A stretch of DNA of 10,351 nucleotides from a virus (IMGVR_UViG_2778261165_000022:1-10351), one strand, 5' to 3'; positions 3,515 through 6,281 are shown, counted from the stretch's first letter. Program-made: numbers and translations. Notes: generated by a model not told the origin, from the letters alone.

Positions 3515-4138
3515 TTAAAATTCGAATTGTCTCGCCCGAAGGCTTTTTAACATTGGTCTTGCCCGTTCGAAAATGGCGCTTGTCTGGTCAATTCGTGTTG
3601 CCTCCCTGAGCAATGCGTCTCTGTTTTTCGTCACCGTGTAGAAAGTCTCAAACGCGATGTCATACAGCTTGCTCGCGTATGATGAGTTCAGTTCCTTCAA
3701 TATCGGATACAGGCGTTTGCTGATGTCCTGTGCTTTCTCCATCTGTACCTGCATGTAGCAGAGGAGGATGATTTCCTCGTCTGTGAATTGCTGCGCTGGT
3801 TGCATGCTGCGAAGTTTCTTTTCACACTCGATGAAGTATCGGCGTATCTGGCGACCTTTTTCGTTACGCTCGACCATTGCCAGCTCTTTGGCTGTGTCGA
3901 GGGTGAGGTGATAGTCTTTGCTACGGCGATCGCCTCCTCGACCTTTGATTTCCCTATTTGGGGAAACCAAAATATAGTCCTGATTTTCAACGAATCCATA
4001 TTCAGCAATGCGTTCTGTAATCCACGATGCAAAGCGTTTACCTACCCCAAGAAAAGTATGTAAATCTCGAGCATTAACGAGAAGAGTGATTTCGTTGGCG
4101 ATAGTGCCGTTGAATACGGGGATGAGTTGACTGGTCAT
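3515..4138 (-). CDS. AntA/AntB-like antirepressor-domain protein
   Basis: 207-aa ORF, ATG at 4138 preceded by AAAGGA. The N-terminal segment ARDLHTFLGVGKRFASWITERIAEYGFVENQDY resembles the AntA/AntB antirepressor N-terminal domain as I recall it. The C-terminal half is unassigned. Confidence 0.6.
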   Translation of the reverse strand: MTSQLIPVFNGTIANEITLLVNARDLHTFLGVGKRFASWITERIAEYGFVENQDYILVSPNREIKGRGGDRRSKDYHLTLDTAKELAMVERNEKGRQIRRYFIECEKKLRSMQPAQQFTDEEIILLCYMQVQMEKAQDISKRLYPILKELNSSYASKLYDIAFETFYTVTKNRDALLREATRIDQTSAIFERARPMLKSLRARQFEF

Positions 4139-4462
4139 TTTTATGTCCTTTCGATTCGTTCAGATTACCCTGTGTTCAGCAGGGTGGTCAGGTACTTGAA
4201 CACCGTCGAAAGTTCGGCCCGCATCCTTAGCCTTGCGGCTGTTTTTCGGTATACGCGCTACCCGACCATATCTGAAAAATGGACATAAAAAATCCGCATG
4301 ACTGACGGGTGCGGTTTCCGCTTTCGAAGGTGTGTTCAGCACCATGAAGCGGAATATAGCCCCGTTAATGCGGATTTGTCAAATCATGTGGTCTTTATCT
4401 TGCTGTAAGCCGCGCCATTCGGTCTTTTCCCCCCAGATTTGGGGAAAACTATCTTGTCAAAA
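4139..4462. promoter_or_regulatory. structured intergenic region (candidate promoter/operator or small RNA locus)
   Basis: 324 bp without a convincing ORF. Two palindromes share a 7-nt centre with different arms: CCCTG-TGTTCAG-CAGGG (about 4168..4184) and GGTG-TGTTCAG-CACC (about 4327..4341). Two hairpins share the stem CCGCA/TGCGG, one followed by a T run on the plus strand (about 4219..4246), one followed by a T run on the minus strand (about 4287..4314). Inverted repeat TTTTCCCC-N8-GGGGAAAA at about 4425..4448. Confidence 0.4.
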
Positions 4463-5206
4463 TCATGCAGCCTTTCGTTCTCCTTCGATGAGTTCCTCGA
4501 TCTTGTGCACTCCCGCCTCGTTGTAGCGAAATGTCTCGACCTGCTTGTCACTGTGCGCCGATTTGTCGATGAACCACTTCCCGTACTTTTCTGTTTTGAG
4601 CATGTAGGTGTTGGCAATGCGCCCTACCTTGTTGGCTGAAATGCCAAGCATGGTGCCAACCTCCGACGCAGAGTAGTGATGTTCATCAATGACCGGAAGA
4701 GGGATTGCACTAAAGCCGACGACGGGATTAATCAGGCTGGCGGCAACGACCTGTTTAGCTTCCGGTGCGAGGTGAGGGAGGAAGTCGAAGAGGTCTTTCA
4801 TTGTGTCGACGGTCATTTTCAATGCGCGTGCCTTACGGAATTCTTCAAGGCCATCCGGTGATTTCTTCGTGGTCGTTTTTTGTTGCAACTGCTGTTGCAT
4901 TGATTCAAGTTTGTCGACCAGCGAACGACGGACGGCTTTCGACTCACGTGCGGCGACGCGCAGGGCTTGCTTGTAGGTCATCACTATAACCACCTGATCC
5001 GCTCCGCCTTTTTTCTTATCCATGGGGGTTACGAAAATTTCGTAACCCTCCCCCTCAAGCTCATCTTTGATGCGTGCAATGAAGTCGTTGTTGCGTACTT
5101 CTTTTTCGCCTCGCAGTCTCCGCGCCTCATTAACCATTTTCAACAGCATCTGGCTGTCAATTGTTGCAGCCGGAAACGAAGACTGATTTGCAATATTGTT
5201 AATCAT
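4463..5206 (-). CDS. hypothetical phage protein (247 aa), possible C-terminal HTH/KilA-C-like region
   Basis: Track ORF 4463..5263. The in-frame ATG at 5206 (MINNIANQ...) has AAGGA upstream; the ATG at 5263 has no Shine-Dalgarno. C-terminal SASEVGTMLGISANKVGRIAN looks helix-turn-helix-like. No confident family. Confidence 0.6.
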   Translation of the reverse strand: MINNIANQSSFPAATIDSQMLLKMVNEARRLRGEKEVRNNDFIARIKDELEGEGYEIFVTPMDKKKGGADQVVIVMTYKQALRVAARESKAVRRSLVDKLESMQQQLQQKTTTKKSPDGLEEFRKARALKMTVDTMKDLFDFLPHLAPEAKQVVAASLINPVVGFSAIPLPVIDEHHYSASEVGTMLGISANKVGRIANTYMLKTEKYGKWFIDKSAHSDKQVETFRYNEAGVHKIEELIEGERKAA

Positions 5207-5301
5207 GTATTCTGTCCTTTTCAGATAAAAGAAATCCCCGCGAGTGCGAGGATTGTTATTCATTGCCGATATTCACCTTTATCGCGAACACCTTTACCGG
5301 T

Positions 5302-5544
5302 TTATCTCCTTTGCATGGCGCGTAATTTTTTCAGATGGTTCTCCTGCTCTGTTTCAGCCAGAATTTGTCGGTATTCCTGGTGATCGATCCGTTCAAACAG
5401 TTCATTAAAATCGTTTATTTTTACCGACTGTGTTCGCCCATCCATTCTTCTGTACAACACAGTGTTGTTTATGCAGCGAAGAATTTTTATCGGGTAGCCG
5501 GCGCTATCGGTGTATATCTGACCACGTTGAATCAGAGCGAACAT
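5302..5544 (-). CDS. hypothetical small phage protein (80 aa)
   Basis: The track ORF begins with a TTG at 5598. The first ATG (MFALIQRGQIYTDSAG...) at 5544 has GGGGATAAAGGA upstream. No family recognised. Confidence 0.45.
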   Translation of the reverse strand: MFALIQRGQIYTDSAGYPIKILRCINNTVLYRRMDGRTQSVKINDFNELFERIDHQEYRQILAETEQENHLKKLRAMQRR

Positions 5545-5618
5545 TCCTTTATCCCCAGCGGAAAAGCGAATACAGAATAAATGCCACCGCGATTGCAACT
5601 CCTACAGCGGTGAATGCT

Positions 5619-6281
5619 TCAGGCCAATTCATCATTCACTCCCTGCGGCGGTTCTGGTAGCAGCATCCAGTACAAGGCGTTCCCTAACCACGATAAAGTG
5701 CCGTCGCTCAACTCCACGTATTCCCCTTGTACCTGTCCTGCCATATACTCGCCGTGCTTTGAATAAATTAAAACCCAATCGTCTTGAGCGGGAATTCGCT
5801 CACTACAGCTTATCCAACCATCCGGAATTACCGGAGAGTTGGTTGACGTTTCCGAGGTTTCCCGAAAATTATTGGTTGACGAATCCTTATTTTCCCGAAA
5901 GTTTCCAGCCTGAAGCATTGCGGCGCGGCAGGCGTTCCAGCCTCTCACCTCTGCAATAGCGGCAACAGCATCAACCGCGTACATGCTAAGAGGATTAGGC
6001 ATTGGTTTTTCTTCCGGTACTACTGGAACGGGTGGAGCGGCGTAGACTTCAATAATCCCATTATCAATAGGCCATTCTCCATCCTTGAGGTAGTCACTTG
6101 TGCCGTCAACTTTCTGTTCTGCAATGTGGAATGCACCTATTGGTTTTGCTTCCAGCGATACCAGTGCAATTCGTGCCAGTTCCTCCGCTTCTTCTGCTGG
6201 CAGTACAACGTTGCTACCCGGTCCGTATGTTTCGCGCCACTGCTTGATTGTCAGCAGTCGCTCTTTGGTTATAGTGGTCAT
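5619..6281 (-). CDS. DUF551-domain phage protein
   Basis: 220-aa ORF. C-terminal IPDGWISCSERIPAQDDWVLIYSKHGEYMAGQVQ...LSWLGNALYWMLLPEPP resembles the DUF551 domain common in lambdoid prophages. Its ATG overlaps the upstream gene's stop (ATGA), implying translational coupling. Confidence 0.7.
   Translation of the reverse strand: MTTITKERLLTIKQWRETYGPGSNVVLPAEEAEELARIALVSLEAKPIGAFHIAEQKVDGTSDYLKDGEWPIDNGIIEVYAAPPVPVVPEEKPMPNPLSMYAVDAVAAIAEVRGWNACRAAMLQAGNFRENKDSSTNNFRETSETSTNSPVIPDGWISCSERIPAQDDWVLIYSKHGEYMAGQVQGEYVELSDGTLSWLGNALYWMLLPEPPQGVNDELA
5839..5901. repeat. 33-bp imperfect tandem direct repeat inside the DUF551 CDS
   Basis: TTGGTTGACGTTTCCGAGGTTTCCCGAAAA and TTGGTTGACGAATCCTTATTTTCCCGAAAG, about 23/30 identical and 33 bp apart. 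Encodes the 11-aa repeat NFRENKDSSTN / NFRETSETSTN in the linker before the DUF551 domain. Confidence 0.6.

Follow-up and report, generated by a model that had tools for sequence, protein, structure and literature searches.

In the immI region of phages P1 and P7 the elements a1b1, c4, a2b2 and icd/ant lie in this order on one strand, i.e., upstream targets, a two-element RNA, downstream targets (one of them at the ribosome-binding site, RBS) and the antirepressor gene; the c4 RNA itself is folded into a closing stem and two hairpins and bears a pair of antisense elements, of which one partly covers the RBS, and RNase P cleaves at GGW to form its 5' end (PMC5320573). In the IsrK/STnc1160/orf45-anrP locus of Gifsy-1, a promoter-proximal short RNA, IsrK, ends at a leaky terminator and is complementary to a processed RNA encoded downstream; read-through yields a translationally silent antirepressor mRNA, and short IsrK acts in trans on this read-through transcript (PMC4825925). 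The P4 CI RNA (seqA/seqC) and the N15 CA RNA are likewise processed small RNAs with complementary sites upstream and downstream in the transcript, and control lytic or anti-immunity genes (PMC4825925, PMC3632133). The locus considered here is a 324-bp spacer (positions 4139-4462) in a stretch of viral DNA of 10,351 nucleotides (nt) (IMGVR_UViG_2778261165_000022:1-10351; in the following, the window), which separates two minus-strand antirepressor-family genes and carries, on the strand of these genes, an RNA of the sRNA-Xcc1 family.

It is considered likely that this spacer is a self-contained minus-strand RNA switch of the P1 c4, Gifsy-1 IsrK and P4 CI type, built on sRNA-Xcc1. On the minus strand, the order of the elements is promoter, leader with a first set of target sites, weak terminator, Xcc1, second set of target sites at the RBS, and antirepressor gene. 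The family has been described as an integron-borne, trans-acting small RNA (sRNA) of Xanthomonas, and in Xanthomonas campestris 8004 Xcc1 is a discrete and stable 88-nt RNA, as seen by Northern blot and end mapping (PMC2996969); here, in contrast, it is found in an Escherichia coli lambdoid prophage, upstream of an antirepressor gene and flanked by its own target sites. Both the sRNA-Xcc1 family and the c4/IsrK mechanism class are known, and it is the link between them that appears to be unreported: neither flanking self-targets nor a c4-type switch was found described for sRNA-Xcc1 in the searchable literature, an earlier description being not fully excluded. The reading probably extends, if a little less surely, to the whole family, which would then be a self-targeting immunity RNA of the c4 type, widespread among the prophages of proteobacteria, with two freely reprogrammable 7-nt addresses, gating antirepressor-type genes (KilA-N, Bro-N, AntA, ORF6N, Rha, P22-Ant) and accompanied by a leader sRNA of the IsrK kind, unannotated to date, as a mimic of the target.

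Antisense elements of sRNA-Xcc1 and their complementary sites

The Rfam covariance model of sRNA-Xcc1 (RF02221) matches the minus strand at 4178..4267, between two palindromes and just upstream of the AntA-like gene, with 64.3 bits against a gathering cut-off of 53 (E = 3e-11; model positions 1-87 of 87); the spacer RNA is thus a member of the family over the full model. This 90-nt RNA, the key element missed by a previous interpretation of the DNA from its sequence alone (the sequence-only reading), ends 40 nt before the AntA-like start codon and shares with the family the stems P1-P3, the A-rich internal loop and the NCC tail. Stem P1 is formed by 4267..4259 with 4194..4186; the antisense elements are CUUUCGA in the P3 loop (4212..4206) and GUGUUCA in the 3' junction (4203..4197), and the 3' tail is ACCC (4185..4182), all on the minus strand. 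The topology is that of P1/P7 c4, including the closing stem, the two hairpins, the antisense loop, the antisense 3' junction, an ACC tail and a 5' end between AU and GG; however, P1 is made up of 9 bp (17 bp in c4), and the long stem P2 contains an internal loop, AUACAA/GGAA, that is conserved.

Four exact 7-nt complements connect Xcc1 with its flanks, the junction GUGUUCA being complementary to UGAACAC in two hairpin loops and the P3 loop CUUUCGA to two copies of UCGAAAG. On the downstream side, hairpin A (CCCUG-CUGAACA-CAGGG, 4168..4184, minus strand), which reaches with its 5' arm into the 3' tail of the Rfam model, shows junction target 2 (4178..4172), and P3-loop target 2 (4154..4148, minus strand) overlaps the Shine-Dalgarno (SD) sequence AAGGA (4150..4146) of the AntA-like gene, whose AUG is at 4138..4136. 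On the upstream side, in the leader, hairpin B (GGUG-CUGAACA-CACC, 4329..4343, minus strand), which is present in the minimum free energy (MFE) fold, shows junction target 1 (4338..4332), and P3-loop target 1 (4321..4327, minus strand) is single-stranded just 3' of the hairpin and belongs to a 13-nt inverted repeat (4200-4212 / 4321-4333). Two antisense elements thus complementary to two sites in the 5' untranslated region (5' UTR), one of them at the RBS, correspond to the arrangement of a c4/IsrK module, and the second copy of both targets upstream on the same strand (4338..4332 and 4327..4321) is the equivalent of a1b1, seqA and IsrK. A weaker, possible second junction site, UGAACG (4157..4162, minus strand), forms five Watson-Crick pairs and one G-U pair; in two other loci (L022 and L163) the equivalent second site is the better match.

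These motifs occur in the window beyond chance expectation: for each 7-mer, three of the four occurrences in the 10.3-kb window fall within the spacer, those of TGAACAC (both strands counted) lying within 4172-4338. Paired with the leader, the antisense segment of Xcc1 forms a duplex of -17.9 kcal/mol, equalled by 4 of 1000 shuffles; paired with the 5' UTR it reaches -14.9 kcal/mol, equalled by 23 of 1000. The putatively regulated gene (3515..4138, minus strand) encodes a protein of 207 aa with an AntA/AntB N-terminal domain followed by P22_AR_C (Pfam: AntA 2.3e-28, P22_AR_C 2.4e-8), which is assigned to phrog_377, 'anti-repressor Ant', with 8.5e-95; by its domains and its PHROG it would be the antirepressor or anti-immunity gene to be expected behind an RNA of the c4/IsrK type.

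For the family-wide analysis, 175 non-redundant Xcc1 loci were collected by pattern scans of viral contigs and bacterial genome contigs. In an offset scan, each RNA 6-mer was searched as its reverse complement in the flanks, RNAs swapped between loci serving as control; single-sequence MFE folding was too noisy for locating the P3 loops, and offset scans and anchored tests were used in its place. In 88 viral loci, flank complementarity peaks at two Xcc1 offsets only, the junction and the P3 loop, and is at background elsewhere; the rates are 53-64% downstream and 58-70% upstream, as opposed to 3-11% after swapping, and both flanks are matched at once in 47-57% of the loci (1-5% after swapping). 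The same result is obtained in the independent set of bacterial genome contigs. Both upstream sites are present in 141 of the 175 loci, with the junction target 5' of the P3-loop target in 134 of these 141, and 89 loci have all four sites. In a non-circular test, in which the site is fixed by the position of the SD, 56% of 146 loci have a P3 loop that forms 6 or more of the 7 Watson-Crick pairs, compared to 2.4% with swapped RNAs; the junction, taken as control, gives 1% in both cases.

Covariation was counted in 13 clean loci, with segments cut at sequence anchors. At the leader sites 97.4% of the cells are paired (shuffled 73%, slid 25-43%) and 9 of 15 pairs are changed on both sides: the hairpin B target is paired in 95% of the cells, with 2 compensatory pairs, and P3-loop target 1 in 100%, with changes on both sides in all seven pairs; at the SD site (P3-loop target 2) the figures are 83.5% and 5 compensatory pairs out of 7. 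The stem of hairpin A covaries as well among homologues (CCCU/GGGG, CCCAU/GUGGG, CCCUAA/UUAGGG). In homologous loci the palindrome loop changes jointly with the third site inside sRNA-Xcc1; indeed, in phage Nil2 and in the second copy of phage Stx2a_F451, hairpin loops, Xcc1 elements and targets all change together, Nil2 having hairpin loops CUCAAAA, junction UUUUGAG, P3 loop CUACUUG and P3-loop targets CAAGUAG, and F451 copy 2 having hairpin loops CUCGAAA, junction UUUCGAG, P3 loop CUUUUGG and P3-loop targets CCAAAAG / CCAAAGGA. Specificity would therefore differ between Xcc1 modules, as it does between the phages P1 and P7.

The open reading frames (ORFs) that follow Xcc1 start 38-66 nt after it on the same strand, and to judge from their domains they are mostly antirepressor-type modular regulators (Pfam counts among 86 downstream ORFs: P22_AR_C 17, KilA-N 14, Rha 11, AntA 9, Bro-N 9, ORF6N 9, P22_AR_N 8). 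One subgroup of viral-contig loci (L013, L017, L018, L040, L051, L057, L058, L063 and others) has, in place of a gene of the antirepressor type, a downstream ORF of about 80 aa with no Pfam match.

Promoter, leader and proposed mechanism

A sigma-70-type promoter is predicted on the minus strand at 4353..4382, with a -35 box TTGACA (4382..4377) and a -10 box TATATT (4358..4353) separated by 18 nt; with 11 of 12 consensus matches it is the one strong candidate of the consensus scan, and transcription would start at about 4347-4345. In the family, 99 of 141 loci have TTGAC at a distance of 42-44 nt on the 5' side of the first target site, as opposed to 2 of 80 background windows. A dedicated promoter immediately before Xcc1 (4268-4290) was looked for by eye and by scan, and no convincing -10/-35 pair was seen. 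The promoter scan gives a minus-strand promoter only and no convergent promoter on the opposite strand, of the kind expected for a sar-type RNA. In P22 immI a small RNA restrains the antirepressor gene too; sar is, however, transcribed from the opposite strand across the start of ant, whereas in the window RNA, promoter, terminator and targets are all found on the strand of the gene, an arrangement shared with P1 c4. Of what the sequence-only reading had proposed, a spacer encoding a small RNA together with a promoter serving the AntA-like gene is thus upheld by the Rfam match and the minus-strand promoter, and RNA control of the antirepressor as a theme by sRNA-Xcc1 and the complementary sites on the gene strand; a plus-strand or overlapping antisense RNA like P22 sar is not. 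A 61-aa ATG ORF (4345..4160, minus strand), which spans the leader, Xcc1 and hairpin A, was rejected as probably spurious, the equivalent frame of Nil2 stopping after 6 codons.

Between the first set of targets and Xcc1, a putative terminator is found at 4287..4314 (minus strand), composed of CCGCA (4314..4310), an 11-nt loop CCCGUCAGUCA, UGCGG (4298..4294), an A and U6 (4292..4287). Its stem covaries (CCACA/UGUGG in locus L005, CCAAC/GUUGG in F451 copy 2), and a U run between the target sites and Xcc1 is present in 126 of 141 loci; because the stem is short, termination is probably leaky. This hairpin is one of two CCGCA/TGCGG pairs (4220-4224/4235-4239 and 4294-4298/4310-4314) which had been taken as terminator-like in both directions. 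Both pairs exist; the second forms a genuine hairpin on the minus strand, with its U run behind it; the arms of the first lie inside the minus-strand sRNA-Xcc1 and are not partners in the Rfam structure, and what reads as a hairpin with a T run on the plus strand is Xcc1 stem P2 with its A-rich internal loop, seen as reverse complement, so that a plus-strand small RNA and bidirectional terminators were both rejected. The terminator loop (4299-4309, minus strand; CCCGNCAG...) is itself conserved while the stem covaries, with equivalents in L001, L005, L022 and L104; it is similar to the 3' arm of Xcc1 stem P1, with which it might compete for pairing with the 5' arm.

The leader is comparable to IsrK, since the Rfam isrK model is composed of target hairpins and then a terminator, and the leader of the window has the same parts. 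The likeness does not go beyond the list of parts (target hairpin, single-stranded site, terminator): searched at 4285-4346 with the Rfam isrK (RF01394) and c4-a1b1 (RF03163) models, the leader gives no match at E up to 10, and unlike IsrK it has one target hairpin and a single-stranded site instead of two hairpins. The layout as a whole may be likened to that of Gifsy-1; unlike in Gifsy-1, an orf45-type coupling ORF was not detected in the window, and an activating role is ascribed to the leader by analogy only. With respect to P1/P7, the window differs in having no icd-like upstream ORF and in the intrinsic terminator placed between the first target set and the RNA. P4 and N15 act mainly via premature transcription termination, whereas in the window a target overlaps the SD, pointing to translational control.

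In the mechanism that we infer from family membership, complementarity and covariation, transcription from the promoter at 4382..4353 would begin with the leader, i.e., a 5' hairpin with UGAACAC, the single-stranded UCGAAAG and the short terminator with its U6 (4314..4287). The majority of transcripts would probably end there, giving a small RNA of about 60 nt, and read-through would produce the 90-nt Xcc1 (4267..4178), the second UGAACAC hairpin and the second UCGAAAG over the SD of the AntA-like gene. Xcc1 would be an antisense repressor of this gene, with the P3 loop CUUUCGA and the 3' junction GUGUUCA as its exposed elements: the P3 loop would cover the 5' edge of the SD and the junction would kiss the loop of hairpin A, blocking ribosome binding and keeping the antirepressor off, either in cis or, once Xcc1 has been excised, in trans. 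Because the leader carries both sites in the same order, it is read as a competing mimic, which would titrate Xcc1 as short IsrK does, so that the ratio of leader to Xcc1 would set the antirepressor output. Variation of the 7-nt elements between phages, or between the two modules of F451, would confer module-specific specificity, similar to the heteroimmunity of P1 and P7. Excision of Xcc1 from a longer transcript, with RNase P acting at the 5' end, and repression in trans have only indirect support, in that Xcc1 begins with GGU after UAU and that NCC follows P1 in about 91% of the loci.

A further segment, UUUUUAUGUCCAUU (4278..4291, minus strand), is complementary to the region from the SD to the start codon (4151..4138), as a 14-nt inverted repeat with 93% complementarity and a duplex energy of -17.3 kcal/mol. 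The MFE structure predicted for the 217-nt transcript contains this helix (z = -3.0), and across the family matched loci reach -13.6 kcal/mol compared to -11.4 kcal/mol for swapped ones (p = 2e-5), a modest family-level support. In the switch proposed above, pairing of 4291..4278 with the SD-to-AUG region would be an extra cis lock reinforcing the off state.

Cis structure, host targets or operators

The same long-range helix can also be counted in favour of a different explanation, to which we assign a low probability: that Xcc1 is a purely cis-acting structure of the 5' UTR (a riboswitch-like or protein-binding leader), the repeats being alternative partners within one transcript and no trans-acting sRNA being made. 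That Xcc1 always lies 38-66 nt upstream of a start codon on its own strand would fit such a view, as would a fold in which the helix closes around Xcc1 and sequesters the SD, and the family-level signal of the anti-SD segment. What speaks for a separate RNA is, on the other hand, the conserved terminator between the first target set and Xcc1, which would make a separate short RNA, as at isrK, together with the discrete 88-nt Xcc1 of Xanthomonas (PMC2996969) and the Xanthomonadaceae loci that lack any downstream sites. The two models are not exclusive, given that the RNAs of P1 and Gifsy-1 act both in cis and in trans.

Very improbable, in our judgement, is the view first proposed for Xanthomonas, i.e., that Xcc1 is a trans-acting sRNA directed at host (virulence) mRNAs and that its antirepressor neighbour is incidental cargo. 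Counted in its favour is HrpG/HrpX control in Xanthomonas, reportedly described by Chen et al. in 2011. Many host genes are also found among the predicted targets (PMC2996969, PMC12189769); the published host targets are, however, predictions only, whereas in most loci the variable antisense elements match, and covary with, sites at most 130 nt away on either side. Moreover, 111 different address combinations exist among 132 parsed loci, a diversity that fits self-targeting and not a conserved host target.

It can hardly be credited that the palindromes serve a phage repressor or antirepressor as DNA operators, in a spacer acting as a protein-controlled promoter region: two similar palindromes do lie 160 bp apart near a promoter, between two genes for DNA-binding-type regulators, but one of them lies behind the predicted start of transcription and the other beside the RBS, neither overlaps the -35/-10 boxes, and their outer arms differ while the conserved centre changes across phages together with a segment of the RNA that is 25-135 nt away. 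On the plus strand the palindromes read CCCTG-TGTTCAG-CAGGG (4168-4184) and GGTG-TGTTCAG-CACC (4329-4343), with an 11-nt exact repeat TGTGTTCAGCA common to both (4171-4181, 4331-4341). Every motif listed in the sequence-only reading is present in the DNA, and its suggestion of RNA stem-loops with a conserved loop agrees with arms that vary and centres that follow an RNA sequence across loci; repeated operator sites, its other suggestion, must be given up because this is the opposite of the pattern of a protein operator. A LexA box was also considered for the palindromes and rejected, the spacing being CTG-N7-CAG rather than N10, with variable arms and a conserved centre.

Several observations weigh against the switch proposed here, i.e., a c4/IsrK-type module built on sRNA-Xcc1. 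The promoter, start site, termination and processing in the window are all predictions; the terminator stem has 5 bp with an 11-nt loop and was not flagged by a simple terminator scan. The single-sequence folds of the leader (z -0.56) and of Xcc1 (z -1.85) are little better than those of shuffles, and two junction bases and one target base are placed in predicted stems, so that pairing would require partial opening. Because many of the loci share ancestry, which swapping does not fully remove, they are less independent than the swap tests make them appear. The Rfam C4 model (RF01695, clan CL00128) gives no match at 3900-4700 with E up to 10, the same search finding C4 at 66.7-77.4 bits in phages Nil2 and P13374; since the model does not match Xcc1 even at E = 10, Xcc1 is regarded as an analogue of c4, possibly a distant homologue, and not as a C4 member, homology being unproven. 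Finally, 24 loci of the Xanthomonadaceae type keep the upstream sites (96%) and have no downstream sites (0-4%). These loci, which include L126, L151, L174, L185, L191 and about 20 others (Xanthomonas, Rhodanobacter, Dyella), represent the integron/symE context (bioRxiv 10.1101/2025.06.18.660453). Repression at the RBS is therefore not universal; the interaction between leader and Xcc1 may be the core function, and RBS control a phage-specific addition.

Prophage setting, related loci and significance

The window is an E. coli-type lambdoid prophage inserted beside proA and tRNA-Thr(CGU); the tRNA gene (1369-1444) adjoins proA and is followed by a tyrosine integrase gene (1459-2619), the attachment site being proA/thrW. 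The minus-strand early-left region carries genes for RecT, Gp157, Ea22-like and DUF551 proteins. The gene upstream of the spacer (4463..5263, minus strand; stop codon 4463-4465) also belongs to the antirepressor family: its ORF has 266 aa, and the true start is probably M20, which gives 247 aa, residues 20-265 being matched by phrog_1726, 'anti-repressor' (1.7e-96). Its counterpart in phage F451 is annotated as an antirepressor, and no Rfam elements were found upstream of the 247-aa gene (5150-5750).

An inverted repeat TTTTCCCC-N8-GGGGAAAA, pointed out in the sequence-only reading and indeed present at 4425..4448, stands after the upstream gene, 14 nt from the stop codon, outside the conserved module. 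A U tail is found on neither strand and the fold is no better than shuffles (z -1.0 to -1.15), and the repeat was accordingly rejected as the terminator of the upstream gene; it is missing from Nil2-type loci. Direct repeats CATGATTT(T)GACAA, 79 nt apart (4376-4396 and 4454-4475), flank this hairpin, so that another copy of the -35 region, which appears to have no function, comes after the stop codon of the upstream gene; compared with Nil2-type loci, a small segment seems to have been duplicated or inserted here.

The spacer is carried by 350 of 5426 complete E. coli genomes, in none of which RefSeq features lie beneath it, and it is 95-97% identical in about 30 phages converting to Shiga toxin (Stx) 2a. 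The sRNA-Xcc1 of the window is 100% identical in phage Stx2a_F451 (L003), which has two Xcc1 units (1004-1089 and 1540-1629), each before an antirepressor gene; the two modules differ in address sequence (CUGAACA type and CUCGAAA type), and behind the copy that is identical to the window lies a truncated antirepressor gene, which is annotated as a pseudogene. In phages Nil2 (L001) and P13374 (L002), the unit of promoter, leader and Xcc1 (79 bits) precedes antB, and canonical isrK, C4 and c4-a1b1 precede the neighbouring antA/Rha gene (L001 2436-2634, L002 2327-2514). Two different RNA switches thus stand in tandem on consecutive antirepressor genes, antA and then antB.

Outside these phages, Xcc1 lies upstream of an ORF6N gene in the APSE phages, which agrees with the survey of downstream genes, and its presence in genomes of Shiga toxin-producing E. 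coli (STEC) has already been listed. In Xylella fastidiosa Temecula1, a genomic island (1,313,466-1,315,082) contains five tandem sRNA-Xcc1 copies about 381-386 bp apart, and in strain De Donno Xcc1, isrK and C4 adjoin on one strand (PMC12189769); both the tandem copies and the cluster fit the reading of Xcc1 as part of a module.

If this reading is true, sRNA-Xcc1, a widespread and poorly understood RNA, would gain a concrete and testable role, and the interpretation of Xcc1 in studies of Xanthomonas, Xylella, Hamiltonella APSE and STEC would be corrected. The RNA-only immunity class of c4, IsrK and CI would gain a second RNA scaffold, in many lambdoid and Stx-converting prophages; antirepressors in these prophages influence induction and hence toxin release. 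The matched pairs of RNA and target are, in addition, a possible source of orthogonal translational repressors.

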